The notes below the pieces were generated by a model, which saw nothing but the letters and a program-made list of their open reading frames with translations, made no database searches and had not been told where the DNA came from. 64,000 nucleotides of DNA from positions 64,001 through 128,000 of the IMG/VR virus record IMGVR_UViG_3300045988_161245, one strand, 5' to 3'. Source of the stretch: a virus. Below, one piece after another: positions 22,584-61,755 of the stretch (within the stretch, counting starts at the first letter, position 1; each line of letters starts with the position of its first letter). A program made the translations under genes and the position numbers.

Positions 22584-22589
22584 CTTTCC

Positions 22590-44477: not shown

Positions 44478-45011
44478 ATGATTTCATTAAAAATTAACGC
44501 TTCTAATCTCAATAAGGCGGCTAGAAAATTTAGAAAATTAGCTGATAGTATTGAGACTGCAGAAAAGAAAACAAATGAAGAAATACCTAAAAAGGCTGCT
44601 CCTGAGATTGAAAATGCAAGCAGGTTCGCAGTTGAAGATTGGTATATGTCATTCAATCCTGAATACTATGAAAGAACTGAATCCCTATTAAATGTATATG
44701 ATGTAAAGCCATTATCAGGGGAAATTAATGTTAATTTAAGCTCTGATGAATTAGGTGGACATAGAGTAGGTAATGACTACATTTATGAGTATATATTTAA
44801 ACAAGGTTATCACGGTGGAGCCATTGATGGTCCTGAACATCCAGCTCCTGGAACTCCATATTGGAGAACAGGATTTAATTTTTCAGAATGGGGAAGACCT
44901 GCTCCAAAAACAACTTCTGCTTATATGCTTATGCAGAAATACATTAGTGAAAAGAAAGATCCAATTAAGGAACTTACGTGGAGTACGTTTATTGGATATC
45001 TAAAATGGTAA
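44478..45011 (+). CDS. hypothetical protein (possible tail assembly chaperone by position)
   Basis: 177-aa ORF with an AGGAG RBS. Confidence 0.45.
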   Translation: MISLKINASNLNKAARKFRKLADSIETAEKKTNEEIPKKAAPEIENASRFAVEDWYMSFNPEYYERTESLLNVYDVKPLSGEINVNLSSDELGGHRVGNDYIYEYIFKQGYHGGAIDGPEHPAPGTPYWRTGFNFSEWGRPAPKTTSAYMLMQKYISEKKDPIKELTWSTFIGYLKW

Positions 45012-45029: not shown

Positions 45030-46721
45030 ATGCCTAATGAAGATTTTAGTATAAAAACTGGTATAGAGGTTGATGATAGTAAAGTCAGCCAATTAAAAAG
45101 TATTGCTGATGAGCTTGAAAAAACAGCGAAAGCTTTACAGAAAATTAATAACGTAAAATTTAATGGTGATATTTTCTCTGGGTTGACAAATGCAGGAAAA
45201 AATATTCAAAACGTCACTAAAGAGATTGATAAATTACAGAAGTCTGCCAATGGTGCTGGAAAACCATTAAACAACATTGGAAAAGGCGCAGAAAGTATTG
45301 TTTCAGGAAACTCAACGCAGTTTACATTATTAGATTTAACTTCTATTGATGTAATTAAATCAAGTATGAGTGAAATTGCAGACTCTGCTCAGAATCTTAA
45401 AGAAGCATTAGGATCAGAAGTTACTTCCGGATTAATGACTCAGATTGATGCTATGTTGGCGAAAAAAGATGAGTTACAAAATCTTGCGAACATTTTGAAA
45501 AGCAATAAGGAAGATTTAAATAAGGCTGCGAAAGCAACTGGAAGTAGTAATAAGAAGTCTACAAATAACACATCGTCTTCCACTTCTACTAAAACCCCAA
45601 AATATGTAACTGACCAGTCTTATGTTGGTGATTATAAGACACTTGCAGATAATGAAGCTTTTGTTCATACTCTTAGTACGTTTAGACATAATACAACAGA
45701 AGCTCAAGCCGCCATAGAAGAACGAAATAAAGTTATGGCAAGAGTAAACGCAAAAACACCACAGAACACTTCTGAAATAAATGCAAAGCAGAGATTTGAT
45801 GATATTGATAAGACTATCACAGACAATCTTAGTAAATACGGAAATCGAATTCAGAGCGCCTATGATGCTTTCGACAAGATAAAAGTAGACAAAAGTGGCA
45901 TCGCTGGAATTGAAGATGTATTTAAATCCAGTGAAGAACAGATTAATAAATGGGCTACTGCTGTCGCAAAAGGCAAAATGGGCATTAGTGAATTTGAGAA
46001 GAAAGTCGGTGGATTAAGTGGATCTGTTGGTAGTATTGGTAAAATCATTGATCCTGCAAGTATCACAGATGCAAAAATGGAATTGGAAAGTTATCTGAAA
46101 GAACTTACTAATGTACAGGATATTACTTTTAGTGGATTTACAGAAAAGAATGGAATTGTTTCGCTAAAAGGTACATTTAAGGATAGTGCCGGTGAAGCGC
46201 AGACTTTAAGTGTCCAATTAAATACACTGAATGGACAGATTAAAAATCTTGGAACTTCTGTAAAACCTGTTGAAAGTGGACTAAGTAAATTCTTCTCAGG
46301 TTGGAAAGAAAAAATGGTAAACCTTGCCCAATATTTGACTTCATTCCAGGCAATGAATCAAGTTTGGAATACGTTCAAGCAAGGTTTAGAAATAGTTAAA
46401 GAATTTGATACTGCTCTTACAGAAATGCGAAAAGTATCAGATGAGCCAATCAGTAAGCTGAAAGAATTTCAGAAGGAAAGCTTTGATATGGCTAAGAGCG
46501 TTGGTACTACTGCTCTACAGATTCAGAACAGTACCGCCGATTTCCAGAGGCTCGGAGAATCATTCTCGGATGCCAAGCAGTCAGCTGTAAATGCTAATAA
46601 ATTATTAAATGTATCAGAGTTTGATAATATTGATGATGCAACTTCTGCGCTGATTTCTATGAAAGCTGCGTATAGCGAAGTTGCAGAGTCAGATTTGGTG
46701 GATAAGGTCAACCAAGTAGGT
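45030..46721 (+). CDS. tape measure protein, exon 1 (564 codons)
   Basis: Coiled-coil N-terminal part, then the start of the TP901-type TMP core (...FQKESFDMAKSVGTTALQIQNSTADFQRLG...DKVNQVG). ORF 45030..46772 runs on into the intron. Confidence 0.7.
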
Positions 46722-46853
46722 GTCAGTATTATGCCTAAACACATGGTAACATGTGGGGTTTTACCCTGTTGATAACTATATCGGTAAACGTCTAGCGATA
46801 GATAATACCGAGGTAAGATATTTTAGAATTATATTATGATTAAAGGAGAAGTT

Positions 46854-47027
46854 ATGAAAGATAGTAAATTATATTGTTGTTTTTCAGTTCCACTCAGAGA
46901 TTATTTGATTTCAAATGGTCTTAGGTATGAGGTGTGTGCAAAAAATCCAAATACAGATAATTTGATGTGGATTTTTATTCGAACAGAAAAGCTTAATTCT
47001 CTTTTAAAGCAATGGAGTAATAAATAA
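46854..47027 (+). CDS. small DUF5659-like protein (paralog 4), intron-encoded
   Basis: AAAGGAGAAG RBS. MKDSKLYCCFSVPLRDYLISNGLRYEVCAKNPNTDNLMWIFIRTEKLNSLL. Confidence 0.55.
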   Translation: MKDSKLYCCFSVPLRDYLISNGLRYEVCAKNPNTDNLMWIFIRTEKLNSLLKQWSNK

Positions 47028-47063
47028 TATTATTAATTTTTTAATGAAAGGTATGGATTTATT

Positions 47064-48377
47064 ATGGCAAGACCATCTAATAAAAGTTTTGGAACATGGT
47101 GTGAAGAAAATAATTTAACATATATGATTGATTTATGGGATAATAAATTAAATAAATGCTCACCATATGATATTGCTATGTCAACTGCACATAAGTACTA
47201 CTTTAAATGCAATAGAGGTATTCACGAAAGTGAATTAACATCAATATGCAATATTACTGGCGAAAAGCATTATAGAGTACATTGTAGAAAGTGCAATTCA
47301 TTTGGGCAATGGTGCATTGATAATTCTAAACAAGAATTATTGAATAGGTGGGATAAAAAATTAAATAATTTGGATCCGTTTGACGTTCCATATGGTTCTG
47401 GTAAAAAATATTGGTTTACATGTCCTGTAAATAATCCTAACCACCCAAGTGAACAAAAAATGTTATCTAATGTTGTTCGTCAATCAGGTTCACAAAGATG
47501 TTTAGGATGTGAATCATTTGGACAATGGTGTATTGATAATGTGGATAAAGATTTTATGACAAAATATTGGTCCGATAAAAATACTATTAATCCATTTACA
47601 TTTACATTTCGTTCAGATAGAAAAGTATATATTAAATGCCAGAAAACATCATATCATGACGATTATCTAATTTCTTGTGCTAATTTTGTAAAAGGAAAAA
47701 GATGTTCTTATTGCACTCCTAAAGGACCTACTAAAGTACATAAGTTTGACTCTGTTGGATATAAATTCCCAGATATTTTTAAAATATGGTCAAGTAAAAA
47801 TAAGTATACTCCTTATAATTATACTTTTAGATCGAATAAAAAAGTATTATTTGATTGTCCAAAACATGGTGAATATGAACGAAAAATATGTGATATGTAT
47901 TCATCCTATTTTAAGTGTCCAATGTGCGTACAAGAAGAATCAGCTTCTAAATTACAATATAAAGTAAATTTATATTTAGAATCTCTTGGGTATAAACCTC
48001 TTCACGAACATAATTGCAATCTTCTTCCAAGAAACCCACTAACAAATGCAATTCTTCCATATGATAATGAAATACCAGAATTAAAATTAATTATTGAAGT
48101 AAATGGTATGCAACATTATGAAATAAGTCAGTTTACAGTTTTGTCATCTATGTCGTCAGGAAAAACTCCAGAAGAATGTCTTCAGTATCAAGGAGAGAAA
48201 GATGATTATAAAAGACAATATGCTATAGAGCATGGATATTATTTCTTAGAAATACCATATTTTCTTGATATTGCTTCAGAACCATATAAATATGCAATTG
48301 ATATAGCAATTGATCAATGTAAAGAAAAAATAAGAAATTCTAAAATATCAACCGTAACGACTGCAGGATGTATGTAG
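47064..48377 (+). CDS. intron-encoded homing endonuclease, zinc-ribbon repeats plus Vsr/DUF559-like PD-(D/E)xK domain
   Basis: 437 aa. Repeated W(C/D)...N...P.D......K.YWF.C zinc-ribbon modules. C-terminal core LKLIIEVNGMQHYE...DDYKRQYAIEHGYYFLEIPY. Confidence 0.6.
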   Translation: MARPSNKSFGTWCEENNLTYMIDLWDNKLNKCSPYDIAMSTAHKYYFKCNRGIHESELTSICNITGEKHYRVHCRKCNSFGQWCIDNSKQELLNRWDKKLNNLDPFDVPYGSGKKYWFTCPVNNPNHPSEQKMLSNVVRQSGSQRCLGCESFGQWCIDNVDKDFMTKYWSDKNTINPFTFTFRSDRKVYIKCQKTSYHDDYLISCANFVKGKRCSYCTPKGPTKVHKFDSVGYKFPDIFKIWSSKNKYTPYNYTFRSNKKVLFDCPKHGEYERKICDMYSSYFKCPMCVQEESASKLQYKVNLYLESLGYKPLHEHNCNLLPRNPLTNAILPYDNEIPELKLIIEVNGMQHYEISQFTVLSSMSSGKTPEECLQYQGEKDDYKRQYAIEHGYYFLEIPYFLDIASEPYKYAIDIAIDQCKEKIRNSKISTVTTAGCM

Positions 48378-48544
48378 TAATATATGTGTTGAAGTTATCC
48401 GTCCTTATATTATAAGGATGTAATATACAGTCTGAACTCACGCAATAATCTAAATTTTATGAAACGTGAGACATAGGTAGAAATGCCTATGCGCCATACT
48501 AATTTTGTGTGGTTAGTAGAGCTTGTCTCGAAAGTAACAGCTTG

Positions 48545-49321
48545 AATAATTTTTCCATCTCCACCGATGGGTTAGCATCAGCATTACAAAGATCAGCATC
48601 TGCTCTTAAAACAGCAGGTAATAATATAGACGAAAGTATAGGATTAATTACGGCAGGCAACCAGGTTGTGCAGGACCCAGAATCCGTTGGTGCCGCAATG
48701 AGAACGATTGCTCTCCGTCTAACAGGAACAAGCGTTGCCGTTCAGCAATTGCAAGAACTTGGCGAAGAGACAGATGGTGTTGTAACAACTGTTTCTAAGC
48801 TTAGAGACGTAATTATGAGCGCAACAAAAGTCGCTTCTAATGGTTTTAAAGGTATAGATATTCTTGATAATAACGGAAACTACCGTTCAACGGCAAGTGT
48901 ATTACAGGATATAGCAGATATCTATAATGAGATCGAAGAAACCGATAAAAAGACCAAAAGTAACAATGTAAATCTTTTGCTTGAAACAATTGCCGGCAAA
49001 AACCGCGCAAATACAGCTGCTAGTATATTGCAGTCACCTGATATTTTAAGGGAAGCAATCGAGTCATCAAAAAATGCGAAAGGCTCGGCAGATCGTGAAA
49101 ATGAGACGTATTTATCTTCGTTAGAAGCTCATATCACCCAACTTCAAACACAGCTCCAAGAGCTTGCAACAGTAACTATCAACTCAGATATGTTTAAAGG
49201 CGTAATAGATACAGCAACCGCCTTTCTTAACATCGTAACTCAGATCCTGGATAAACTTCCACTGCTCTCAACAGCAATTGGTGGTCTTGCAGGATTTAAA
49301 CTTTCAAAAGCAGGTCTGGGT
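48545..49321 (+). CDS. tape measure protein, exon 2 (259 codons)
   Basis: Continuation of the TMP core (NNFSISTDGLASALQRSASALKTAGNNIDESIGLITAGNQVVQDPESVGAAMRTIALRLTG...). The ORF-track entry 48509..49354 includes intron sequence at both ends. Confidence 0.65.
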
Positions 49322-49733
49322 AAACAGCTTAACATAAAGTTAGTTTCAATTTAAAATTTTATCGTAGTTAAGATGCCCATTTGATATGCTGCTGTCATAA
49401 TCGCGACAGTTAGTATAGAACTTGTTCAAGATGGTGATTCGACACCTATTGACAGACCTTTAGCCTTAGAGCTATAAAGCCGAATATCGGAGGAAGCCGT
49501 AATCCACATCACTGTGGTACCTTAGTTCTGAAAATGAATGAAAGGGATATATTGAAGATGGTAGTTCCGACACGTTAGCAAGCACATATGTTTAAATTTA
49601 CAAAAGTGGATGATAAATTCACGAATAAAACGCAATTATAAAAGGAAGAAAGAAATAGAGAGTAGAAAGTTGCAGGTAACAACTCTCCACTCTCTTAAAA
49701 GACTAAAAGGAGATTACAAAAATATGAACTAAA

Positions 49734-49907
49734 CTATTTATTATTTTGGGTGTCATCCTTATAGAATTCTCCAGACATGTCAAATCCTTTCAGGAATCCA
49801 AAATGGATGTGAAAGTTTTTCATGTTCTTAGATGGTATTCTGCGGATTAGCGACCATAGGATTAATAATCCTACAAGAGTTAAAACGAATAGAAATACAT
49901 CTTCCAT
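49734..49907 (-). CDS. small single-pass membrane protein (57 aa, below the ORF-track cutoff)
   Basis: Hand translation gives MEDVFLFVLTLVGLLILWSLIRRIPSKNMKNFHIHFGFLKGFDMSGEFYKDDTQNNK, with a GGAAGGAGGTGAG RBS. Confidence 0.55.
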   Translation of the reverse strand: MEDVFLFVLTLVGLLILWSLIRRIPSKNMKNFHIHFGFLKGFDMSGEFYKDDTQNNK

Positions 49908-50364
49908 ATCTCACCTCCTTCCTGTACGAAAGTATCAAGAAAGAGATTTGATGTTGGGAGAATCCCATAGAAATGAATATAATATTTAGAGTACTTCATT
50001 TTAGACAATCTCATTTCTGGTACAAATTGCGTACCAATAATTCAATACTACATGACGACTGTCAGATATACTGTCGTGCAACGGATCATAATGTAGAACT
50101 GTGATCACAAGTATATCTGACTTTGATTGTAGTATAATTGTCTATTTTTGTAAATCCAGAACATATGTGTTTTCATGTAAAAGTGTAGTTTTACAGTTAA
50201 CGTGCGAGAGGCTGACAAAGCATATTATATGTGGCGTTACAACATATAGTATAATATACAGTCCAACCAGGGAAAGCCTGGGTAGCATGATGGATCGAAT
50301 AGTATGGATAGAACCGTGAGGTTACTACTCGCTTACTACCTGAAATGCACTAACTGCACATATT

Positions 50365-50395
50365 CACCACGGCTTGCAAACGTGGTGTTTTTATT
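50365..50395 (+). terminator. terminator-like hairpin (caccacg...cgtggtg + TTTTTATT)
   Basis: 7-bp GC-rich stem plus a T-run. If the intron model holds, this could instead be an intron peripheral helix. Confidence 0.45.
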
Positions 50396-50424
50396 ATTTT
50401 ATTGAAAAAGAAGGTGAATATTTT

Positions 50425-50616
50425 ATGTGTGTTAAAATTTTTGATCATATTTTTTTAATAAGTAATTATGAGGTTATAGATTATTATAATAATGAAGAGG
50501 TAAATAAATTACATAGCCAAATATTACTTTCACCTCAAGATATAAAGGAGTATTTTGAATGGCTCTTTATAAAAGGTAAACATTATTTTTGCGGTCATCC
50601 AGGAGGATTATTGTGA
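50425..50616 (+). CDS. small partner protein S1 (MxVKxFD family), convergent with and overlapping the peptidase gene
   Basis: 63 aa with an AAGGTGA RBS. Paralog of 61819..62037 (MCVKIFDHIFLISNYEV vs MYVKFFDCELFIDSHEI). Confidence 0.55.
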   Translation: MCVKIFDHIFLISNYEVIDYYNNEEVNKLHSQILLSPQDIKEYFEWLFIKGKHYFCGHPGGLL

Positions 50617-51150
50617 TCTTAAAACAACTGTATTAATATTTGTATTTACATTATTATTTACTTTTGCTCTATCATTTATTATTATTTTCATATCATTAAT
50701 AATGTTAGAAAAATCTTTTTGAGTATCTACAAATAAATCAAAGTCATAATCACCTATAGCCATATAATTTATCGGTAGTAATTTACTAATACGACATTGA
50801 TGTTTTTCAGTACCTATAAGATATATTTGTGGTATTTTACACTTATTAAATCCTACAATAAGTAAATGAATTCCATCATTTGATGCATGATTTTCTTCAT
50901 AATCTTTCACTTCTTTATATACGCATTCTACATCATTTGTGTCTAATAATATTGATTTAATTTCTAAATATATTTTTAGGCAATCAAAATCATTTTTACT
51001 ACCAGCATAAGCAATAACAACTTTATCACTAATTTGATAAATCTTATTCTCGTTTTCAGTAACTATATTACTGTTTTTATCAACGATTCTGGAATCACCG
51101 CACACAATGATATCATTATCTTTAGATATTGCAGCAATAACTAGACTCAT
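50608..51150 (-). CDS. HslV/proteasome-beta-like Ntn hydrolase with N-terminal Ser (copy 1)
   Basis: 180 aa with a GGAGGT RBS. MSLVIAAISKDNDIIVCGDSRIV...NKIYQISDKVVIAYAGSKNDFD aligns by eye to HslV TTIVSVRRNGHVVIAGDGQ...[23 protein letters not shown] (nucleophile, Asp and Lys positions conserved). Confidence 0.6.
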   Translation of the reverse strand: MSLVIAAISKDNDIIVCGDSRIVDKNSNIVTENENKIYQISDKVVIAYAGSKNDFDCLKIYLEIKSILLDTNDVECVYKEVKDYEENHASNDGIHLLIVGFNKCKIPQIYLIGTEKHQCRISKLLPINYMAIGDYDFDLFVDTQKDFSNIINDMKIIINDRAKVNNNVNTNINTVVLRSQ

Positions 51151-51189
51151 GTTATACCTCCAATTTTATATTTTAAATATGTTAAAAAA

Positions 51190-51621
51190 TCATTTAAATA
51201 TTCCATTGGCAATATCGGTAATAAATTTAGGATCAGTAACAGCTACTTTAGCAACTTCTACACATACTGCTGAGATCATATTTATAGAAGAAATACCTAC
51301 AGATTTTAATTTAGCTTTACTCTTCCTCCATATAGAGTCAGGTCTAATTGATTCTGCTAATTTATGTCCTTCGAATGTAACATCATAAATTTTACAGTTT
51401 TCATATTTATAGTTATCATCTATAGAATACGATCCTTCTAAGAATCTTCCGTCAAATAAGTTTTTCACACAATATTGTACATCCTCTTCAGTGTATTTGC
51501 CTGAAAAGTGATCCTTTATATCTTTTAACATAATCCGCTTGAAATCTCCATTAAGTTTCATATTATCTTGTTCTTCAATATATAAGAGTACATCTCTAAA
51601 ACAATCATAGTTTAATATCAT
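51190..51621 (-). CDS. DUF2513-like winged-helix protein
   Basis: The ATG at 51621 has a GGAGGATTGAAT RBS. MILNYDCFRDVLLYIEEQ... and DVTFEGHKLAESIRPDSIWRKSK match the DUF2513 pattern (..iL..iEe.., LTweGHeFLd.ir...vW.k.k), recalled from memory. Confidence 0.5.
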   Translation of the reverse strand: MILNYDCFRDVLLYIEEQDNMKLNGDFKRIMLKDIKDHFSGKYTEEDVQYCVKNLFDGRFLEGSYSIDDNYKYENCKIYDVTFEGHKLAESIRPDSIWRKSKAKLKSVGISSINMISAVCVEVAKVAVTDPKFITDIANGIFK

Positions 51622-51652
51622 ATTCAATCCTCCATAGAAAGGTCGTGAAAAT

Positions 51653-51922
51653 ATGTTGTGGTCAATTTCTGAGACAGAAAATATTGCAACAAAAATTATT
51701 AAATTGTTATACGAAAATAATTGTACTGATGAAGGTGATATTGAAACCACATTTACATTAGTACGAAATCATTTTAAGAATATGTCCATTGATGACATTA
51801 TTAAATTCGAAACAACTGGTAAGATGCCGGAAATTGACGTTCATGGTAATCTTACTCAAATTATAAAACAAGTTTCTAGTCAAATAGCTGATGAGTTTTT
51901 GGAAGAACATGGTATTAAATAG
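51653..51922 (+). CDS. hypothetical acidic protein
   Basis: 89-aa ORF that fills the gap between minus-strand genes, with an AAAGG RBS. Confidence 0.45.
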   Translation: MLWSISETENIATKIIKLLYENNCTDEGDIETTFTLVRNHFKNMSIDDIIKFETTGKMPEIDVHGNLTQIIKQVSSQIADEFLEEHGIK

Positions 51923-52077
51923 GTTGTTTTCCAGGTTTCCAAGAATACCAACAAGCTGCACACCTGTTCACGGTTTTATTACTTCCTAAGAAACCAGTTA
52001 TCAACGAGTAACCACGCTGTCCGGTAGTGATCTGAGTGCTTCCACAGCGAGGACAGTGAACAGTATTGGTTTTTGTA
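51915..52077 (-). pseudogene. start-less zinc-ribbon coding remnant
   Basis: Hand translation gives ...NTVHCPRCGSTQITTGQRGYSLITGFLGSNKTVNRCAACWYSWKPGKQPI*. Resembles the C-terminus of ORF 53006..53545 (RHCPKCNGTNFTPVRKKYGLFMGFATNKVELVCNNCGY). No ATG/GTG/TTG lies between the upstream in-frame stop and the motif. Confidence 0.4.
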
Positions 52078-52764
52078 TTAATTTGTATTAGGTTTATTAT
52101 ATTTTTCTATATGTTCCTTTATTGTAGTCTTGACTAAATTATGTAATTTAATTTGATAATTAAGCAATACATTATAATTATATTTTGTTGTTGACAAAAA
52201 ATATTCCGTTATCTCTATAAATAATGAACGAAACATATCTGGTACATACTTATAACTATAAACATATTCGATATTATGCTTTTTAAGTGATGTCAAATAT
52301 CCAACACAATAATATAAAAGTCTTTCGTCACAATATACCTCACCTTTTAAAATAGGATCATTTGGTAATATAAAACTCTCAGTTAAATTTACTATTCCTT
52401 TATCTACATATTTTTTATATGAGAAATTTTCTATTTTTAAATGTATATCCATTTCAACTTCTGAAGCGTGAACTTCAGAATATATGTACATTAATTTAAT
52501 AAAATCTTCAAGCGGATAATTTAATAACTGAGTAGAATCATATACATGTGTGAACTCGTGAAAGAAAATTCCTTTGTATATTTTTGATTCATCTAATTGT
52601 TTGTTAACTTTTAGTATATATTTTTGATTATACAATTCCAATGTATTGAATTGTGCGGCTGCACAATCTCTTTTGTCAACTTCAATATATTCTTGTATTT
52701 CTGGAATTTCATAATATAACTCGTTGTATTCCTTAAATATTTTATCAAGATACTCTTTGTTCAT
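52078..52764 (-). CDS. HExxH zinc metallopeptidase (ImmA/IrrE-like?)
   Basis: The ATG at 52764 has a GGAGAT RBS. GIFFHEFTHVYD contains HExxH, with a downstream Glu-rich YSEVHASEVE. Confidence 0.5.
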   Translation of the reverse strand: MNKEYLDKIFKEYNELYYEIPEIQEYIEVDKRDCAAAQFNTLELYNQKYILKVNKQLDESKIYKGIFFHEFTHVYDSTQLLNYPLEDFIKLMYIYSEVHASEVEMDIHLKIENFSYKKYVDKGIVNLTESFILPNDPILKGEVYCDERLLYYCVGYLTSLKKHNIEYVYSYKYVPDMFRSLFIEITEYFLSTTKYNYNVLLNYQIKLHNLVKTTIKEHIEKYNKPNTN

Positions 52765-52793
52765 TTTTATCTCCTGCATAGAAAGGAATTATT

Positions 52794-53000
52794 ATGATAA
52801 AAAACAAAATGCTAATTATTAGATTAAAACGTGATATATTATATCTAAAGTTTAAGAGTTTAAAAGTAGATATTAAGTTTGCAATTAAAAAAGTATATTA
52901 TAGAATTTTCGACAGCAAAAAGTACCAAAATCTCCTACAAACTCAAAAAGATATGCAAGAGATTTTGGATGCAATTGACGACAGAATGAACTGGGTGTAG
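52794..53000 (+). CDS. hypothetical basic small protein
   Basis: 68-aa ORF that exactly fills the gap between two minus-strand genes, with an AAAGGAA RBS. Confidence 0.4.
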   Translation: MIKNKMLIIRLKRDILYLKFKSLKVDIKFAIKKVYYRIFDSKKYQNLLQTQKDMQEILDAIDDRMNWV

Positions 53001-53005
53001 TAGCT

Positions 53006-53545
53006 TTAATTTTCAGCCTTCATTCTATAACCACAGTTGTTGCACACTAACTCCACTTTATTAGTAGCAAATCCCATGAATAGTCCATATTTCTTCCTAA
53101 CCGGTGTAAAGTTGGTGCCGTTACATTTTGGACAATGACGAGTGTTAACTTCCTGCTGTTTTGCATTTTGTTGTGCTAAATATTCATTGTATCTTTTATC
53201 TAATTCTTCTTCAGCCTTGGCATTTATAATGTTCATTTGATTAGTATATTTGATGATGTCATTTGTATATAAATCGAACATTGTTGCAACAAAACCAGGA
53301 TCATTATTACCATATTCACAGAAATTAAACATATCGTTAAAACTCATATTAGGAACTGGTGTTAATTTATTTCCACATCCAGGACATAAATCTAAACTTT
53401 CACCACTAAGAATACCTGCATAATCTTTAGGTTTATTTGAACTTATTGAAAACATAGATTTTGTGCGTCCTTGTGGTTGTTTAAGTTTATTTCCACTTTT
53501 TAAAATGCATTCTCTACAATAATATATAATCTTATTAGAACTCAT
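53006..53545 (-). CDS. triple zinc-ribbon protein
   Basis: 179 aa with a GGAGGTTGG RBS. CxxC pairs at YYCRECI, CPGCGNKL and CPKCNG...CNNCGY. Confidence 0.6.
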   Translation of the reverse strand: MSSNKIIYYCRECILKSGNKLKQPQGRTKSMFSISSNKPKDYAGILSGESLDLCPGCGNKLTPVPNMSFNDMFNFCEYGNNDPGFVATMFDLYTNDIIKYTNQMNIINAKAEEELDKRYNEYLAQQNAKQQEVNTRHCPKCNGTNFTPVRKKYGLFMGFATNKVELVCNNCGYRMKAEN

Positions 53546-53610
53546 ACGCCAACCTCCAAAATATAATATTATAATGCAAGTATAACATTATATTCTCCAA
53601 TATTCAATTG

Positions 53611-56600
53611 GTCTTTAACTACGATAAAGCAACAGGAAAAGTTGGAAGTAATAAAAATAATTTAGAAAATGCATTAACAGAAGTAAAAGATTTCTTTCTA
53701 AAAAAACAGGATATAGAAAAGCCATATACACTTAGCAAAGATGAATATTCATTTTTTGAGAGAATGAAAAAAGAGCTTTCTGATTCTCAGTTAAATGGAT
53801 CTGCGGAAGATTCTAAAGATGCAATGCTACAACTGGCAGAAGAAATTACAGGTGCAGATAGCTCATTGGTCAAATATATCCAAGACACAGATGTAGCGTC
53901 TGTTTCTCAAGTCGGTTTTGCTCAATCACAAAAAACAGTAATTCAAGGAACAACTAAATTTAGTGCTGTAATGAAAACGGCCGGTGGAGTAGCAAAATCA
54001 TTTGTAGCTACCCTTGGAAGTATGGCTGTAGCCGCCGCAGCAGCTTGGGCTATCGGTAAAGTAATTGAGGGTATTGATTATCTTTATCATTACGATGAAA
54101 ATATCATCAAAGCTGGACAGGAAGCAAAGGATTCCATTGACAGTACATTTAAAAGTTTCGAAGAAGGTAAGCAGTCTATCATGGACCTTGGCTCTTCATT
54201 TGGCAATCAGACAGAGCAGATAAAAAATACCGGTGATGCAATCGATCAAGTTGCCGAAAAATATGTAGAGCTTCGTAAGGGAGTAAATCAGAATACAAAC
54301 GAGAATGTATCATTATCTACAGACGAGTATCAGCAATATATTGATCTCAGTAGTAAGCTTGCCTCTCAGTTTCCTGGTCTGGTAGCAGGTTATGATAGTC
54401 AGGGAAATGCTGTATTAAATCTTGCTTCCAATGCAGATAAGGCTGCTGATAGTATTCGTAATTTATATGAAGCACAAGTTTCTTCTGCAAATGTTGATAT
54501 GGGGAAAAATCTACAAGCAACATATGATGGTGTTGTTACACAGACAAGTCAATATGCTGAGGATATCCAGAAAAAACGTGATGAGTTAGAACAATTAGAT
54601 ACTGATATTTCTGAGAACAAACGTAGTATTTTAACATATGGAAGTAACAATTTTGAAGTACAAGGGCTGTATGGTGATAAAGAAAATGTTATTACTGATG
54701 TTCTAAAAGAGAATGGACTGTATAAAGAAAATACAGGAGATGACGGAAGTATTTGGAACTTCTATGCCGAAGGTCTCGCTGATAAGTCAAAAAAAGAAAT
54801 AGATAGGATGAATGAACAGATTACAGCTGGTTTGGAATCCTATAACTTGTCACTAGAGACTCAAAGAAGCCAACTTCAGAGTGAAATTAACTCCTACGAT
54901 TTAATGATTGAAGATCAATGGCGTAGTATGGCACAATCTCTTGGAAACTATCTTCAGACATCAAAATCATTTAATGAACTTGATGATAGTCTTCAAAGTG
55001 CATTTCTTGCCAACATTTCAAACCTTGACTTAACTGCCTTAAATGATCCAGATGGTAAATACCAAGGACAGGTGCTTGATTTCTTGTATGGAGAATTCAT
55101 TGGACCAATGTCTCGGTTTAGTGCGGATGTACAAGAAAGTCTTGCAGATGCATTACAGATTGATCCTTCTAAATTGACTATTGATGAGTATAAGTCACAA
55201 GTTGATGAAGCATTTAATAAAGCATTTCCAAAGGAAGAAGATGCAGATAAACGAGATAGATTCAAAAACGCTTATGGAATTGATTCTTCTATTGAGGATA
55301 TGGAGGATAATGCATCTCGTCTCAAAGAAGCATATGCAGATTTTCCAAATGCCAGTGATTTTATTGACCATATGCAGACAGGTGATCTGTCAATTGCTGC
55401 ACAGTTAATTGATAATGGTTCAGTTGATATTGAGAAAGGCACAGATGGATTAGTTTCTGCCATTGAAAGATATAAGAAAACGGTAGCTGAAGCAAAATCT
55501 GATACAACTCTTGCTTCTGTTCTTGGCGATTCCGATAATGAAATCTCATCTTCTATTGATTCTTTACAGTCAGATATTTCTTCTTTATCAGATACTCTTA
55601 CCAAGCTTAAAACAGGTGAGTTCAAAGATTCAGATCTCACCGACCTTATTCAACAGTTTCCACAGTTAGCCGATCAAACAGATAATCTTCAAGAAGCTAT
55701 CTCCAATCTTCAGGCAGATAAATTAAAGTCTACTTTGAAAAAAATTGACGATTCTATGGATGGAGCTTCTGATGAAGAGTTAGCTAATGCACAAAAATTA
55801 AAAGATTCTTTAATTAAGTCAGTTGACCTATCTGATATTAATTCAGACAAGATTACAGAATCAATCAAAAGTGCTTTTGAAGGTGATGGCGGAAGTAGGT
55901 ATATTGCTGCAGAACATGGAGCAAAAGCTGCTGAAGAATACAACCAAGCATTTTCAAAAGAACTTAAAAATAGTGCTGGACGAGAAGCTTTCTATAAGGC
56001 AACATTAAATCAAGATGCTGTAAAACAGGGACCTGATGCAATACGTGAATTATATAATCAGTATTTAAAGACAGCCAAAGACATCATCCAAGATACAGAT
56101 ATCCAATCACAGCTTACAAATTATCAGGATAAATACCAGTCACTCTATCAAGCTCAGAAAGATCTAAAGAACGGTCTAATGACTGGTTCTACCAAAAAGA
56201 CATTTCTGGACAAGTTTCCAGATCTTGCAAAGTATGCAGGAAACACTGAAACACTCTCTTCTGCTATTGATGATCTGATGGATTCTATGGACAGTGATGT
56301 AACTAACCAGTTTACAGATGCTATTAAAGCTCTTCAGGATGCCGGACAGTATGCAGATGCAAGTGCATTACAATCTTATGTTGAAGCTGTTTTAGATGGT
56401 GCCCATGATATCGAGGGTGCTTATCAGAAGATCGCAGGTCTTAAAATTCCTACACCTAAGTACGCAGAACTTAAAGAAGCTCTTGAATCTTCAAACGAGG
56501 GTGATCTTTACAATGAACTTCTCTCTCAGTATAAAACCGCAAAAGAGGCATGGGAAAAAGGTGAAGTTGGTACAGATGACTTTAAGTCTTTTGCTTCTAT

Positions 56601-59600
56601 TATTTCTCCTACAGGTGTATCTGATGCAGTAAACTTTGGTGAGAATCAAGCAATGTTTGAAAGATACTTCCAGGATACATCTACTGGTGTTGAGAACTTC
56701 TTAGAAGATCTACAGAAGCTTGACCTTGCTTCTAATGAAAGTGGTCATTGGACCAGTACATTAGGAAATAACCTTGATGAAATGCGAGACGCTGCACAGA
56801 GACTTAATATGGGCTTTGAACCATTTATGATGATGTTTGGTCGTCTCGAAGATTATGGTGCTACTACTGACTTCTTCACTACGGAAGAGGATGGGCAACA
56901 GCATTTATCTGATCTCTATCAGCAGATTGCAGAAAAGAAACAAAAACTTGCAGAAATTAAAGCAGATCCGGATTTAGCTGGCGATCAGTCTGCTATTGAT
57001 TCTCTCAATAAAGATTTAGATGAACTTTATGCGAGAGTAGAAAATACAAAAACTGGAATTGAAGAGCTTCCGGACAAAGCAACTTATTATGAAGCAAAGA
57101 ATCTCGAACAGGCTAAATCAGTTATCACTCAGATGCAGGACGAAATTAATCAGGCAGCTGCAGAAGGAAATGATGAATTAGTCAAAATTCTTGAAAAGAC
57201 TCGTGATCAATATTTAAAAGAAAACGGATATATTCTTAAAGAACAGCCACAAGGTCCAACTCAGCAAGGGACTATTGAAAATCCGTTAGCAAGAGAATTC
57301 ACAAATCCAACTAAATTTGGCGATTATGAGACAGTCATCAAGAAGATTCAGAATGCGACAGATGAACAGACATCTTCTCTTGAGAAAAATCTTAAAGTAT
57401 TAAGCCAATATTCTGAATCTCAGCTCAGTGGAATCAATTTATCCGATGGACAGTATGATACCGGTTTTGAGGATGCCGAACAAGCACTTGACAACCTTTC
57501 TAGCACATTTGGTCTTACAAAAGATCAAGCGGTACAGTTAGCAGCTGTTCTTTCTGATATGGGGCTGATTAAAGCAACTCCTAAAGTTGACTTAACTACA
57601 GTTCAGGATCAGATTGATAATGCAAAAGATGAGTTACAGGATAGTAATATTACTGTTGATTTAGATTTTGATATTTCTACTTCTAGTAAAGAAGAACTTC
57701 AAAAAAAGAGTCAAGAAATTCAGAATGAGCTGAATAATAACGCATCTCTTTCTGATTCTCAAAGAACATCTTTACAGGGAGTAAAAGATTCTGTTGATAA
57801 CCAGGTTGTTACGCTTACAGTACAGGAAAAAGTTGAAAAAGATGGTGATGTAGACGAGCTTCTTGCAATGGATGATCAAACACTTGCCACAACACTTGAC
57901 CTTGATGTTAATAATGCTGACCAATTATCAACAGCTAGGGATGAGCTACAATATATTAAAGACAATCAAGATGCTCAAATTGATATGACTGTTAAACTGG
58001 ATGAGACACAGTTTAATCAGCTATTAGGTGACGGTGAGAACGCTTCTATTGATGTTACAGCAAACAATGAAGAAGCAAAAGAAAAGATAGATGAAGCTAA
58101 GAACTATGCAGAAAGTCAGAAACCTCAAATGAAAATTGATGGCAACAATGATCCTGCTATCAATAAAGGTACTTCTGCTACTCAGATGATCAACAACATG
58201 ACTGGAATTATTAAGGTTAATGCTGACACATCGGGTATGGCAAGTGCTATTAATTCTGAATTGTCAAAGCCTCATACTATCAATATTTCCGCAAATGTGT
58301 CTACGCATGTTAGTGGTGGAACAGGTAAATCTACAGGAACTATGATTAGTGTCGCTCATGCCGATGGAACTGCTTATAATGTTATCAATTATACTCCTGC
58401 TCACGCAAGCGGAAATGTAACACTTTCACATGATGAAACTGCTTTAGTTAACGAAGAAGGCATTGGCGCTGAATCAATTGTGCGTGATGGTAAATGGATG
58501 ATTATTCCTGGTGGTGCCCATTTTGAAAATCTAAAAAAAGGTGACTTAATCTTCAATAAAAAGCAGACATCCGAGCTTATCAATTCAGGACATGTTACAT
58601 CTGGAGGTGGACATGCTAGAGCTTATGCAAATGGTACTGTTGGTGCTTATGCAGGAGGTAATTCTGGTGTTTATTTAAACTGGGATAAAAATCGTACTCA
58701 AGTTGGCAATCAGTCAACATCATCTCCCTCTAATTCCACAATTACCGATAAAAATACAACTTCTGTTAAGAAAAATACAGACACCGTAAATGACAATACC
58801 GAAAAGATAAAAAAATCTACTAAGGTATATGACTGGGTAGAAACTCGTATTAAGCATTGGTCTGATCAGGTTCAAAAAATCGCTGATAAAATCACCGACT
58901 ATATTAAGAAATCACTTAAAACATCTTTGCTCAAACAGCAAATTCGTAAGATGAACTATGAGATTGGTTCAAATGAAAAGGGTGCAAAAGCCTATATGAA
59001 AAAGGCTAACTCTATAGCAAACGAGTACACTTATTACAATAGTGATGGCGAAGAAATTAAAACCAATGTACCAAAGAAATATCAGAAGCTTGTCCAAACA
59101 GGTGCTTATCGTATTGAAGATATGGACACTTCAACAGATCAGGGTAAGGCTCTGGCAGAGGCTATCGATCAGTATAAGACATATTATGACAAAGCACAGG
59201 ATTGTAAACAGGCTGTTGTTGATCTGAAAAAAGAGCAGCTGGAATTGTTTGAACAGTGGGCAAATATGCCAACTGAAAAAGCAGAGCAGAAATTGGAACG
59301 TTTACAAAACGGATTTAATGGATTGAATGCAACTCAGTCAAGGTTATCTGCTGTTCAGACAGGTGGATCAACACAAAAAGCTATAGCAGACGCTGCTACT
59401 GCAAGTTACGAATCAGCACAGGTAGTTACAGAAAAAGCACAATCAAATCTTGACACAGCAACTGCGAAAGCAGATAAGGCAACTACAGCTGTAAATAGAA
59501 AGAAAAAAGCACTTCTTAAATCAAAAGGTCTTACGAATGAGCAGAAAAAAGCTATTAAATCCGGAAAGACTATTGATACCAGTAAGATTACTAACAAGAC

Positions 59601-61755
59601 TACGAAGAAACGTGCCGAAGAGTATAATTCTGCAGTTAAAAATAAAAAGAAAGCAGATTCTAAAAAGAAAACGGCTCAGACTAAATTTAACACTGCAAAT
59701 AAGAATTCTTCATCTCTTAAGACAGATGCAGAAACAGCAATCGCCGGATATCAGGAAGGAAACGAACTTTCCTATATGGATTCCTTAACTGATCAGAATG
59801 TGACACAGACAAAGCAAGCTGCAGATATTAACAACAAGGCTTGGGAGGAAACTAAGAAAAATCTTAACGCACAGGAGAAAGCCAAGAAACAAGCAGACGA
59901 TAAGGTTAGTAAAAAAGCTAAAGCTATTAAGAAAAAGTTTGGTAGTAAACTGAGTGATAATCAGAAAAAGAAATTAGCAGCAGGTAAAGAAATAAATGTC
60001 GATAAGATAAAAGACAAGTCTCTTAAAAAGGCTCTTACAGCATATAATAAATATGTTACTACTGCAGCCGAAACAGAACAGAAATTAAATATTGTCACAG
60101 ATGCAGAATCAACAGCGGCAGCTAATGCAGCGGAATCACAGACAGAAGCAGCTAAAGCCACAGTCGAAGCTATTCAAAGTAAATTTGATAATGCGAAGAC
60201 GTATTATGAAGGATTGTTAGGATATCAGGAAAAGTATAATGAAATGGAAGAAGCAAACATTGATTTATACAATGCTCATGGAAATTATGAGCGTTCTTCT
60301 GATTATGAGATTAAGATCTCAAATACTGAAAGTCTGAGAAATATTGCACAGGATAAAGTTGATGAGCTTGAGAAAAGATTTCAAGAAGGTGTTGATAATG
60401 GCACAATTGTAGAAGGATCTCAGGAATGGATTAATATGAAATCCGAGATTGTAGAAGCAAAAAAAGCTGTAACCGATTACGACACAAGTATTGAAAATCT
60501 GAAACAGCAACAAATTGGTGTTTATTATGAAGAACAGTTTGATCGTGCAATAGAGAAAATTGATCAGTTCAAGGACCGTATTGATATACTAAATGAAATC
60601 ATCTCTGATGATATGAAAGTTGATAAGAATACTGGACTACTTACAGAATTGGGAGCTACTTCTGTAATGTTGAATAGAAATCAGTTTTCTGCAAATCAGA
60701 AAGAAATACAAAAGCTTCTTGAAAAAGAAAATGATGTGAAAAAACGATACGCTAATGGCGAAGATATGTCTTCTGAATTTGGCGAAAAGACTTATGATGA
60801 ATATATAAAAGACATTCAGTCTAAATATAATTCTTTAATTTCATCAAATAGTTCTCTTCAAAATGATATGCTCTCTCTTGTCAAAAATCAGGCTCAAGCA
60901 GAACTTGATGCTCTTAATAAAGTAATATCTAAGCGTAAGGAAGCCCTTTCCGCAAAGAAAGACTATTACGATTACGATAAAACTTTAAAGGATAAGACTA
61001 AAGACATTCAGATCCTTGAACGTCAAGCGGCAGCTCTCCAGGGTTCAACAAACGCTGAAGATAAAGCACGTTTGGCAAAGATCCAGGAACAATTATCAGA
61101 TGCAAGAGAAGATCTTTCTGATACTATGACAGACCATGCTTTCAGTATGCAAAGTGATGCGCTTGATAAATTATCCTCAGATATGAGTGATGATTTTGAC
61201 AAATGGTCTAACGACATAAGCTCTAACGTAGAGAAAATGAGTAAAGCTATTAATGAAGCAGTTTCAAATTCTGCTCTTAGTAATGCGCAGGTTCTCAATA
61301 ATCTTTCTACTATTCTGAAAAATGTTGGATTAACAGATGAGCAGGTTAACTCTACATTATCAGGACTTACCGGTTATGCTTCCGGAACTGACTATGTTCC
61401 AAAATCTGGTATGTACAGAGTTAACGAAAATGGAATGGAATCTGTACTGTCAAGAAAATACGGTACTCTCACATTCTTAAATCAGGGCGATAAAGTATTT
61501 ACAGCAGACTTCACCAAGAGACTTATTGATAATGCAGGTATTGCCACACAGAGTAGTCAACCACAATTTGGCGAGATGTATAAGGAACTTATGAATGCGA
61601 TTACCAACACAAACAATCAGTCTTATGAACATAGTACAGTTTACAATATTGTTGTAAATGAAGCTACTGATGCAAACGCAGTAGGTGATATTGTCGTTAA
61701 GAAGATCGATGCATACGAAAAGAAGCGTGTAAGAGATTTTAAGAGTCTCAGATAA
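53611..61755 (+). CDS. tape measure protein, exon 3 (2714 codons)
   Basis: The giant ORF (track 53608..61755) has no RBS. It starts with a hydrophobic segment (LGSMAVAAAAAWAIG) that complements the one ending exon 2. It is dominated by coiled coil and carries a TMP C-terminal-type motif twice. Confidence 0.7.
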   Translation, partial: VFNYDKATGKVGSNKNNLENALTEVKDFFLKKQDIEKPYTLSKDEYSFFERMKKELSDSQLNGSAEDSKDAMLQLAEEITGADSSLVKYIQDTDVASVSQVGFAQSQKTVIQGTTKFSAVMKTAGGVAKSFVATLGSMAVAAAAAWAIGKVIEGIDYLYHYDENIIKAGQEAKDSIDSTFKSFEEGKQSIMDLGSSFGNQTEQIKNTGDAIDQVAEKYVELRKGVNQNTNENVSLSTDEYQQYIDLSSKLASQFPGLVAGYDSQGNAVLNLASNADKAADSIRNLYEAQVSSANVDMGKNLQATYDGVVTQTSQYAEDIQKKRDELEQLDTDISENKRSILTYGSNNFEVQGLYGDKENVITDVLKENGLYKENTGDDGSIWNFYAEGLADKSKKEIDRMNEQITAGLESYNLSLETQRSQLQSEINSYDLMIEDQWRSMAQSLGNYLQTSKSFNELDDSLQSAFLANISNLDLTALNDPDGKYQGQVLDFLYGEFIGPMSRFSADVQESLADALQIDPSKLTIDEYKSQVDEAFNKAFPKEEDADKRDRFKNAYGIDSSIEDMEDNASRLKEAYADFPNASDFIDHMQTGDLSIAAQLIDNGSVDIEKGTDGLVSAIERYKKTVAEAKSDTTLASVLGDSDNEISSSIDSLQSDISSLSDTLTKLKTGEFKDSDLTDLIQQFPQLADQTDNLQEAISNLQADKLKSTLKKIDDSMDGASDEELANAQKLKDSLIKSVDLSDINSDKITESIKSAFEGDGGSRYIAAEHGAKAAEEYNQAFSKELKNSAGREAFYKATLNQDAVKQGPDAIRELYNQYLKTAKDIIQDTDIQSQLTNYQDKYQSLYQAQKDLKNGLMTGSTKKTFLDKFPDLAKYAGNTETLSSAIDDLMDSMDSDVTNQFTDAIKALQDAGQYADASALQSYVEAVLDGAHDIEGAYQKIAGLKIPTPKYAELKEALESSNEGDLYNELLSQYKTAKEAWEKGEVGTDDFKSFASIISPTGVSDAVNFGENQAMFERYFQDTSTGVENFLEDLQKLDLASNESGHWTSTLGNNLDEMRDAAQRLNMGFEPFMMMFGRLEDYGATTDFFTTEEDGQQHLSDLYQQIAEKKQKLAEIKADPDLAGDQSAIDSLNKDLDELYARVENTKTGIEELPDKATYYEAKNLEQAKSVITQMQDEINQAAAEGNDELVKILEKTRDQYLKENGYILKEQPQGPTQQGTIENPLAREFTNPTKFGDYETVIKKIQNATDEQTSSLEKNLKVLSQYSESQLSGINLSDGQYDTGFEDAEQALDNLSSTFGLTKDQAVQLAAVLSDMGLIKATPKVDLTTVQDQIDNAKDELQDSNITVDLDFDISTSSKEELQKKSQEIQNELNNNASLSDSQRTSLQGVKDSVDNQVVTLTVQEKVEKDGDVDELLAMDDQTLATTLDLDVNNADQLSTARDELQYIKDNQDAQIDMTVKLDETQFNQLLGDGENASIDVTANNEEAKEKIDEAKNYAESQKPQMKIDGNNDPAINKGTSATQMINNMTGIIKVNADTSGMASAINSELSKPHTINISANVSTHVSGGTGKSTGTMISVAHADGTAYNVINYTPAHASGNVTLSHDETALVNEEGIGAESIVRDGKWMIIPGGAHFENLKKGDLIFNKKQTSELINSGHVTSGGGHARAYANGTVGAYAGGNSGVYLNWDKNRTQVGNQSTSSPSNSTITDKNTTSVKKNTDTVNDNTEKIKKSTKVYDWVETRIKHWSDQVQKIADKITDYIKKSLKTSLLKQQIRKMNYEIGSNEKGAKAYMKKANSIANEYTYYNSDGEEIKTNVPKKYQKLVQTGAYRIEDMDTSTDQGKALAEAIDQYKTYYDKAQDCKQAVVDLKKEQLELFEQWANMPTEKAEQKLERLQNGFNGLNATQSRLSAVQTGGSTQKAIADAATASYESAQVVTEKAQSNLDTATAKADKATTAVNRKKKALLKSKGLTNEQKKAIKSGKTIDTSKITNKTTKKRAEEYNSAVKNKKKADSKKKTAQTKFNTANKNSSSLKTDAETAIAGYQEGNELSYMDSLTDQNVTQTKQAADINNKAWEETKKNLNAQEKAKKQADDKVSKKAKAIKKKFGSKLSDNQKKKLAAGKEINVDKIKDKSLKKALTAYNKYVTTAAETEQKLNIVTDAESTAAANAAESQTEAAKATVEAIQSKFDNAKTYYEGLLGYQEKYNEMEEANIDLYNAHGNYERSSDYEIKISNTESLRNIAQDKVDELEKRFQEGVDNGTIVEGSQEWINMKSEIVEAKKAVTDYDTSIENLKQQQIGVYYEEQFDRAIEKIDQFKDRIDILNEIISDDMKVDKNTGLLTELGATSVMLNRNQFSANQKEIQKLLEKENDVKKRYANGEDMSSEFGEKTYDEYIKDIQSKYNSLISSNSSLQNDMLSLVKNQAQAELDALNKVISKRKEALSAKKDYYDYDKTLKDKTKDIQILERQAAALQGSTNAEDKARLAKIQEQLSDAREDLSDTMTDHAFSMQSDALDKLSSDMSDDFDKWSNDISSNVEKMSKAINEAVSNSALSNAQVLNNLSTILKNVGLTDEQVNSTLSGLTGYASGTDYVPKSGMYRVNENGMESVLSRKYGTLTFLNQGDKVFTADFTKRLIDNAGIATQSSQPQFGEMYKELMNAITNTNNQSYEHSTVYNIVVNEATDANAVGDIVVKKIDAYEKKRVRDFKSLR

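Follow-up and report, generated by a model that had tools for sequence, protein, structure and literature searches.

The DNA considered here is a 64,000-nucleotide stretch of one strand of a virus (positions 64,001 to 128,000 of the IMG/VR record IMGVR_UViG_3300045988_161245), which as a whole we call the window, and the subject is its gene for the tape measure protein (TMP) of the phage tail, which lies in pieces over 45030-61755. Three open reading frames (ORFs) on the plus strand, at 45030-46772 (580 aa), 48509-49354 (281 aa) and 53608-61755 (2,715 aa), are separated by two gaps of 1,823 and 4,289 nt once the frames are trimmed at the predicted junctions, leaving 564 + 259 + 2,714 codons, or 3,537 in all. 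An earlier, sequence-only reading of the window had proposed this same three-exon arrangement, and its codon numbers, its total of about 3,537 and its span of 45030-61755 prove exact. The arrangement is as follows:

45030-46721, + strand: TMP exon 1 (e1), 564 codons; ATG start with an AGGAAG Shine-Dalgarno (SD) sequence 9 nt upstream; PHROG 4211 positions 498-720
46722-48544, + strand: predicted intron 1, group I, IA-like with P7.1; 1,823 nt, last base G at 48544
48545-49321, + strand: TMP exon 2 (e2), 259 codons; 5′ end without start codon or SD sequence; PF10145/TIGR01760; PHROG 4211 positions 722-941
49322-53610, + strand: predicted intron 2, group I-type; 4,289 nt, made up of a 1.07-kb conserved block, then variable cargo (about 3.2 kb) and a 3′ element of 65 nt with a terminal G
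53611-61755, + strand: TMP exon 3 (e3), 2,714 codons (53611-61752) and stop codon (61753-61755); PHROG 4211 positions 945-1659; collinear with relatives L010 and L029

Exon 1 ends in ..VNQVG and exon 2 runs from NNFSIS.. to ..KAGLG, each with T as its last base, and exon 3 begins VFNYDK. Both e1 and e2 end in ..GGT and both gaps in ..TTG, so that the last base of each gap is G. The predicted splice-junction sequences are ..GTCAACCAAGTAGGT-AATAATTTTTCC.. and ..GCAGGTCTGGGT-GTCTTTAACTACG.. (here and below a hyphen marks the junction). The junction peptides named in the earlier reading, ..VNQVG-NNFSIS.. and ..KAGLG-VFNYDK.., coincide with the points at which the P1 and P10 pairings described below would place the splice sites.

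By itself e1 has no match to the TIGR01760 or PF10145 profiles, and e2 matches the distal part of each profile only (PF10145 87-194; TIGR01760 127-340, 47.6 bits). Joined, the two match TIGR01760 in one stretch over positions 16-340 of 349 (90 bits, cut-off 28.8) and PF10145 over 5-194 of 201 (56.7 bits, cut-off 33.2). Along the 2,625 positions of the TMP profile PHROG 4211, the three exons occupy the consecutive segments given above, with one to three positions between neighbours. Uninterrupted homologues tell the same story. A scan of IMG/VR with exon 2 yielded 12 loci, on contigs of up to 222 kb. One more distant relative, L010, has a single open frame of 4,068 codons, and its BLASTP alignment is one high-scoring segment pair (residues 379-1092 of the joined protein against 1300-1974) that crosses both junctions (..LNEVGNNFAVS.. 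and ..KSNSLGDFITFQ..). A rumen metagenome-assembled genome (MAG) found in a scan of species-representative genomes, L029, has one frame of 4,654 codons, collinear with e1-e2 and distal e3. A protein search added the uninterrupted fragments P0008 and P0009, the former spanning the junctions collinearly, and the TMPs of cultured phages (Brevibacillus phage Sundance, Enterocloster phages) align in one piece over junction 1. Because profile reconstitution, collinearity on PHROG 4211 and the uninterrupted homologues agree, the three ORFs almost certainly derive from one TMP gene.

The gene sits in a tail module, the downstream ORF at 62679-63635 matching DUF6558, ‘phage tail protein N-terminal domain’ (8e-19); PHROGs gave no chaperone identification for the small upstream ORFs at 43848-45011. 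Within e3, Pfam and PHROGs reveal no enzymatic domain, and modules of the type ..VNExG.. occur twice, at residues 2436 and 3427 of the joined protein. The sequence-only reading had also described paired transmembrane (TM)-like helices at the end of exon 2 and the start of exon 3. A strongly hydrophobic helix is indeed present in e3 (FVATLGSMAVAAAAAWAIG, joined residues 954-972), but about 130 residues in rather than at its start, and the segment at the end of e2 is only moderately hydrophobic.

The closest relatives of the window come from human gut samples, and the named MAGs among its wider relatives are Clostridia (Clostridium sp., Kineothrix, Eubacteriaceae). Megablast of the region against cultured phages gave no match. 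In the 11 close relatives the frames of e1, e2 and e3 are intact wherever the fetched DNA covers them, while the cargo of the second gap varies. TMP length varies among them too: a 216-aa insertion (for example L005 5701-6342) lies at a Ser/Thr-rich stretch corresponding to window residues ~172-190. The gap that it makes in exon 1 of L002, L005 and L009 was considered as an intron and rejected, as it is an in-frame protein insertion. An ENA contig (L033, ERZ27261153) with its protein P0001 has a near-identical e3 reduced to 972 aa by a deletion of about 1,740 codons (..DSLQSDI-QSKYNSL..) in a rearranged neighbourhood. A defective prophage or an assembly error may account for it, and in view of this rearrangement the 972-aa e3 was not used as a tail-length polymorphism.

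The first gap has the features of a group I intron. Its helix pairings and compensatory changes were read by eye from alignments and folds, and its elements are:

46728-37, + strand: internal guide sequence (IGS) AUUAU-GCCUA, in which GCCUA (46733-37) pairs with the exon end uAGGU
46771-76/48394-99, + strand: P3, GAUAAC/GUUAUC
46781-85/46807-11, + strand: P4, UCGGU/ACCGA
46816-27/48339-49, + strand: P6, AGAUAUUUUAGA/UCUAAAAUAUC, closing a 1.5-kb loop that holds the endonuclease ORF
48359-63/48428-32, + strand: P7, GACUG/CAGUC, from R-like CCGUAACGACUG and S-like GUAAUAUACAGUC
46836-47027, + strand: small ORF, 63 aa; PHROG 21297, function not assigned
47064-48377, + strand: homing endonuclease ORF, 437 aa; three DUF4379 treble-clef zinc fingers and a C-terminal nuclease region

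The guide GCCUA lies eleven bases downstream of the exon end uAGGU and places a U.G pair at the splice site, and an additional hairpin between P7 and P3′ corresponds to the P7.1 of subgroup IA. Members of the same intron family sit here and at other TMP sites in relatives, and in them P3, P4 and P7 change on both strands. P3 is AGUAGC/GCUACU in L003, L004 and L005 and CCUAGC/GCUAGG in a small intron of L005, while P7 occurs as GAUCA/UGAUC and P4 as ACGGU/ACCGU. At the other sites the guide tracks the exon, with GCCUG facing CAGGU in L011 and GUCC facing GGAU in L005. L011 and L010 are contiguous at the intron-1 site and so represent intron-less alleles. The endonuclease ORF matches Pfam PF14311 (4.4e-22) and PHROGs 559 (‘HNH endonuclease’) and 9084 (‘homing endonuclease’); a sequence search of the PDB returned no match to it. 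Intron 1 thus reads as a mobile phage intron of the ordinary kind, its P6 loop holding a homing endonuclease gene, and its splicing can be predicted with high confidence.

Extra group I introns were seen elsewhere in exon 2, in L005-L009 (9381-10000) and L011 (7576-7925 and 8211-10000). Those of L005-L009 enclose a mini-exon of 17 codons, VNSVAAGLKTVSLRIVG, and the L011 insert at 8211-10000, with GUUCACAGACUA, has the appearance of a different group I type. In the window itself, the ORF at 23390-25105 (+ strand, 571 aa), just upstream of a terminase-like ORF (26195-27967), has a weak DUF4379 zinc-finger match like that of the intron-1 endonuclease, and is a candidate for a further endonuclease, whether free-standing or intron-borne.

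The second gap is the more unusual. An insert occupies the identical site in all 11 close relatives, with a length of 2,453-7,925 nt. Its elements at the RNA level are:

49322-50400, + strand: conserved structured-RNA block, of which the first 1.07 kb (to ~50395) is common to 11/11 IMG/VR relatives
49370-79, + strand: IGS, AAGAU-GCCCA (P10 part, then P1 part)
49388-49414, + strand: P2
49421-26/50214-19, + strand: tentative candidate P3, CUUGU/ACAAG; GUUGU/ACAAC in L030
49566-79/50196-209 and ~49581-49616/50131-70, + strand: long-range helices of the consensus fold, joining the 5′ part to the 3′ half around a small antisense gene
50210-14/50259-63, + strand: P7, GGCUG/CAGUC
50221-32/50242-53, + strand: P8
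50267-81, + strand: P9, CCAGG-GAAA-GCCUGG, with a GAAA loop
50365-50400, + strand: hairpin closing the conserved block (stem-loop 50365-87), CACCACG-GCUUGCAAA-CGUGGUG followed by a U-run; terminator-like
53560-53594, + strand: 3′ terminal hairpin, within the last 65 nt; loop AUGCAAG

The guide sequence pairs with both exons. Its GCCCA part pairs with the last five bases of e2 (UGGGU, with U.G at the splice site), and its AAGAU part, in register, with the first five bases of e3, which are GUCUU here and AUCUU or AUUUU in relatives, the pairing being kept in all. Two more diverged loci have pairings of their own. In a Clostridium sp. MAG (L024), whose neighbouring genes match Pfam YonB, YonD and YomU, P1 is GUAGGU/GCCUAC and P10 a 6-bp GAAUAU/AUAUUC, giving the join ..QDVG-IFKSQNDRF nine codons upstream of the first ATG. 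In a Kineothrix MAG (L030), P1 is AGGAU/GUCCU and P10 an 8-bp GUUUACGA/UCGUAAAC, and a phase 1 junction gives ..KGLG-FVNFDSK. The corresponding join in the clade of the window and its close relatives (the W clade) is ..GLG-(V/I)FNYDK, and neither L024 nor L030 has a start codon at the junction. Three diverged clades therefore carry distinct, self-consistent P1 and P10 pairings, all in frame and all restoring a similar peptide; since three independent exon-guide sets with this property are otherwise hard to explain, splicing at these points is the most natural prediction.

The block behind the guide is 93-97% identical in most relatives and ~80% identical in L003, and it recurs in 12 further human-gut metagenome loci; an exact intron-2 21-mer was found in IMG/VR in the same 11 contigs only. 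In its consensus fold, 26 of 327 predicted pairs show changes on both sides. The catalytic half lies behind the small antisense gene, with the R-like element GCGAGAGGCUG (GAGAGACUG in L003), J8/7 reading UAAUAUA, and P8 and P9 both changing on the two strands in L003 in compensatory fashion. R- and S-like elements forming P7 (GRCUG/CAGUC) are present in four clades: L024 has UCGACUG and GAACAGUC, and the compact core of L030, of ~450 nt, has CCAGAGACUGACAACG, then P8, AACAGUCCGAUC and GUAUAG-GAAA-CUAUUC. In L027, P, Q, R and S elements near the Rfam group I consensus directly follow the ORF for the N-terminal part of the TMP. An S-like segment at 49554-68, GAAGAUGGUAGUUCC, was tried as J8/7-P7 and abandoned; the true R/S pair is found at 50203-63, and in the consensus fold the segment pairs with 50343-56 instead. 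A 12-mer shared exactly by introns 1 and 2, TAAUAUACAGUC, is not significant on its own when one mismatch is allowed (13/100 shuffles).

The 3′ end of the insert is also structured. Its terminal hairpin is 97.9% paired, with changes on both sides in five of the 12 pairs; its covariation score was not reached in any of 500 shuffles, and its G.U pairs suit the plus strand only. UGCAAG, in the loop of this 3′ hairpin, and CUUGCA, in the loop of the hairpin with which the conserved block ends (50365-87), are complementary, and L030 has an analogous loop pair, CUUGGAAA/UUUCCAAG, that differs in a compensatory manner. This suggests that a loop-loop pairing could tether the distant 3′ splice site to the core, with two cautions: complementary 8-mers between core and tail are expected about once by chance, and the 3′ loop coincides with the -10 box of a promoter on the other strand.

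Between these structured ends, and in one case within the block, lie the following genes and signals:

49734-49907, - strand: antisense gene inside the ribozyme block, 57 aa, hydrophobic and TM-like; perfect AGGAGG SD sequence and a terminator-like hairpin at 49657-49695 (- strand)
50425-50616, + strand: cargo gene, 63 aa
50608-51150, - strand: cargo gene, proteasome/Ntn-like
51190-51750, - strand: cargo gene, DUF2513
51653-51922, + strand: cargo ORF
52078-52779, - strand: cargo gene, HExxH protein
52794-53000, + strand: cargo ORF
53006-53545, - strand: cargo gene, Zn-ribbon protein; conserved in all clades
53607-02 (-35) and 53584-79 (-10), - strand: sigma-70-like promoter for the Zn-ribbon gene, overlapping the 3′ hairpin and the 3′ splice site

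The antisense 57-aa gene is conserved in all W-clade relatives and absent from the compact core of L030. The cargo proper (50425-53545) is a mosaic, in which the proteasome-like, DUF2513 and HExxH genes are present in some relatives and missing from others, and to which some relatives add plus-strand genes. Its only constant member is the Zn-ribbon gene, which is antisense, adjoins e3 and has homologues in L024 (17823-18353), L027 (16887-17396) and L030 (13578-14054). The encoded protein, of ~170-190 aa with an N-terminal CxxC and a C-terminal CPxCG..GF..C..CG, could be a splicing or expression factor. PADLOC gave no match for the cargo proteins, a PDB sequence search none for the HExxH protein, and Pfam, PHROGs and PADLOC assigned none of the window's cargo proteins to a transposase, TnpB or recombinase family. 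The island of L009 (12736-15013) includes plus-strand ORFs of 507 and 253 aa that resemble IS21 istA/istB, as judged by size and N-terminal sequence only, and several relatives also carry a 156-aa ORF with a DTGAS motif (retropepsin-like).

We propose that the window carries one TMP gene of 3,537 codons with two group I introns, both of which would be removed from the late transcript to give a single protein of ~390 kDa. In intron 2, a ribozyme block of ~1.07 kb at the 5′ end, itself holding a small antisense gene, would use the guide AAGAU-GCCCA to pair with the end of e2 (UGGGU) and the start of e3 (GUCUU); the long 3′ tail would act as a landing pad for variable, mostly antisense accessory genes, and the short 3′ element would return the distant 3′ splice site to the core. 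The phage's own polymerase would have to read through the cargo. A candidate is the 927-aa product of the plus-strand ORF at 12534-15317, which is related to the ‘RNA-dependent RNA polymerase’ of Enterocloster phage PMBT24 and to human-faecal phage contigs, has no Pfam match, and by analogy may serve late transcription as a two-barrel RNA polymerase of the YonO type. YonO itself is the two-barrel enzyme by which SPbeta transcribes all of its late genes as a single operon; it is without the flap domain on which termination at hairpins depends (PMC5467207). Given the PMBT24-related protein, the analogy with YonO and the precedent of the IStrons discussed below, read-through of the cargo is plausible. 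It is probable that both gaps are spliced to yield a TMP of ~3,537 aa. For intron 2 taken by itself splicing is likewise probable, and less certain than for intron 1.

Several observations weigh against this proposal. Splicing is deduced from sequence only, and neither JGI metagenomes nor IMG/VR contain an exact match to the 30-mer of the spliced e2-e3 junction. The Rfam model RF00028 matches neither intron in gathering and E-value scans of the window, 12 relatives and L024/L027, nor, even at E<=10, an ORF-less 343-nt copy of intron 1 from L011. Our own covariance model, underpowered with three intron-1-family segments, barely matches intron 1 of the window (E = 0.064) and misses intron 2. The close clade offers only two intron-2 sequence types, the assignment of P3-P6 in intron 2 is tentative, and in L027 P1 and P10 are ambiguous and splice sites could not be assigned. 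The plus-strand terminator-like hairpin at 50365-50400 and antisense genes with their own promoters could disturb synthesis or folding of the precursor; with a hairpin and U-run in its path and expression signals in the cargo, the precursor must cross a terminator-like site and oppose antisense transcription. Finally, the last three bases of intron 2 are ATG or TTG in 12/12 W-clade sequences and could serve as a start codon for e3.

This last point leads to the main rival, namely that the gene is expressed in two pieces: intron 1 is spliced, the second gap is an intergenic island in which the ribozyme block is a relic, and the products are e1+e2 (~833 aa with a short read-through tail) and e3 (2,715 aa, from TTG 53608), which would function jointly or each by itself. 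Gene callers do start proteins at M-VFNYDK (P0001-P0007), hundreds of ‘TP901 family TMPs’ of 745-1,100 aa from Clostridia in the databases stop exactly at the intron-2 site, the island has promoter- and terminator-like signals of its own, and neither an empty site nor a spliced junction was found among the close relatives. The ATG or TTG at the intron end is nevertheless weak evidence, because the terminal G is fixed, a T always precedes it and the context is AT-rich, and the rule fails in L024, where the conserved exon starts nine codons before the first ATG, and in L030, where the junction splits a codon. Scored as matches out of six to AGGAGG at proper spacing, the formal starts of e2 (GTG 48509) and e3 (TTG 53608) have 2/6, against 5-6/6 for clearly initiated genes of the window. 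The read-through tail after e2 varies between relatives by a frame-shifting indel, whereas P1 and P10 covary with the exons over three clades, and the 1.07-kb block and 3′ hairpin keep covarying structure while the adjoining start of e3 falls to 45% identity. We therefore consider expression in two pieces unlikely.

Trans-splicing would reconcile the signals differently, with one transcript ending at ~50400 and e3 transcribed separately together with the 65-nt 3′ element, the two being joined through the CUUGCA/UGCAAG loops. The plus-strand hairpin and U-run stand exactly at the end of the conserved block, antisense cargo would collide with continuous transcription, and the loops are complementary, with the compensatory pair of L030. 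Yet no convincing plus-strand promoter precedes e3, the U-run is missing in L003, the two cautions given above for the tether apply equally here, the -10 box being able to explain the conservation of the 3′ loop, and trans-spliced group I introns are reported only from organelles, so that this explanation appears very improbable. Smaller still is the probability of a TMP pseudogene in a defective prophage, or of an insert excised from the DNA before late expression. The rearranged neighbourhood and short e3 of L033, and the tolerance of an IS21-like insertion in the L009 island (on the same ORF-size and N-terminal grounds), would fit such a history, but independent contigs of 180-220 kb preserve intact ORFs as long as 2,500-2,700 codons, Pfam and PHROGs show no recombinase in the cargo of the window, the boundary alignments show no flanking direct repeats (no dedicated repeat search was made), and RNA-level signals such as P1/P10 and the covarying hairpins would have no role in DNA excision. 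The agreement of domain reconstitution, collinear homologues, P1/P10 pairings and the lack of start signals at e2 and e3 instead favours the three-exon gene that had been proposed for the window.

The earlier reading did not say what kind of element fills the second gap, although that element is the most unusual feature of the region. To us a cargo-bearing intron at a fixed TMP site, kept across a wide clade of Clostridia phages and unseen by standard annotation, is more novel than the giant TMP. A stronger statement would make intron 2 a giant group I intron that is functional and passed on by vertical inheritance, and that serves as an accessory-gene hotspot in an essential late gene, at the same site in distant Clostridia phages and with its distant splice site tethered by long-range loop pairing; in our judgement this statement has an even chance of being correct. 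If it is, splicing would let a phage park early or lysogeny genes within a structural gene while the protein pays nothing for it, and splicing may couple transcription of the cargo to TMP production. If intron 2 is spliced, changing and largely antisense cargo of several genes can be accommodated by a group I intron, and the IStron principle would reach beyond transposases to a new kind of phage accessory-gene hotspot. There are practical consequences as well. Because gene callers split the TMP and list its pieces as separate proteins, tail-length predictions and annotation for this gut-phage clade would be systematically wrong if the pieces are joined, and because both introns escape the standard Rfam model, surveys of introns in phage genomes will miss this family.

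Elsewhere in the window, Rfam identifies two plus-strand group I introns 39 nt apart, at 37354-37660 (82 bits) and 37700-37987 (72 bits), which lie between ORFs 36782-37462 and 37983-38750. The region 37354-37987 suggests that a structural gene here has a very small middle exon; clean in-frame exon joins could not be derived for it. Genes for Met (CAT), Tyr (GTA) and Pro (TGG) tRNAs lie at 15597-15670 and 22204-22584 (+ strand), and a fourth, weak Rfam tRNA match at 22204-22287 was not called by ARAGORN.

How does this gene compare with known systems? At 1.5 Å per residue, 3,537 residues predict a tail of 531 nm. The TMP of Thermus phage P23-45 has 5,002 aa for an 800-nm tail (bioRxiv 10.1101/2022.12.01.518664), and its ratio of ~1.6 Å per residue would give ~566 nm, so a tail of about 0.5 μm is a reasonable extrapolation. 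The sequence-only reading had placed the protein among the longest of its kind, which is fair, but it is no record: the TMP is very long and not the longest known, because L010 (4,068 aa), L029 (4,654 aa) and P23-45 (5,002 aa) exceed it. P23-45 and the window are alike in having a TMP of several thousand residues and a tail, predicted in the case of the window, of several hundred nanometres. They differ in that the P23-45 protein carries an N-terminal RNA polymerase, whereas here Pfam and PHROGs show no enzymatic domain and the gene is in three exons; the P23-45 gene is not known to be interrupted. The TP901-1-family TMPs of Firmicutes siphoviruses (Brevibacillus phage Sundance, Enterocloster phage PMBT24, large Bacillus siphoviruses) share the TIGR01760/PF10145 core, with 24-30% identity over junction 1. 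The cultured phage PMBT24 has an uninterrupted TMP of 1,508 aa and a related polymerase-like gene.

Group I introns with homing endonucleases are familiar from phages, including T4 (td, nrdB, nrdD/sunY), Twort, SPO1 and SPbeta (bnrdE/F). Intron 1 fits this type in its IA-like core with P7.1, its endonuclease in a peripheral loop, its U.G pair at the 5′ splice site, its terminal G and its presence/absence polymorphism. Intron 2 shares with T4 nrdD/sunY the position of ORFs 3′ of the core, and otherwise departs from the type: its length in the W clade is 2.45-7.9 kb, as many as about ten genes lie on its two strands, one of them within the core, and no endonuclease is recognisable in it. RF00028 matches neither it nor intron 1.

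A closer parallel is offered by the IStrons of, for example, Clostridioides difficile and Clostridium botulinum, in which a group I intron is fused to an IS200/605 or IS607 element; there the group I core removes kilobases of 3′ cargo in vivo, and splicing that restores the ORF has been shown by RNA-seq (PMC10690162). IStrons and the predicted intron 2 are alike in having a 5′ ribozyme, kilobases of coding cargo in the 3′ tail, a far 3′ splice site that relies on a short 3′ element, and Clostridia as hosts. Unlike IStrons, intron 2 has no tnpA, tnpB or transposon ends, its cargo consists of variable, mostly antisense accessory genes, and it occupies one fixed site in a phage structural gene across a wide clade rather than being scattered by transposition. 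Intron 2 is thus closest to the IStrons in layout, yet it is not classed as an IStron.

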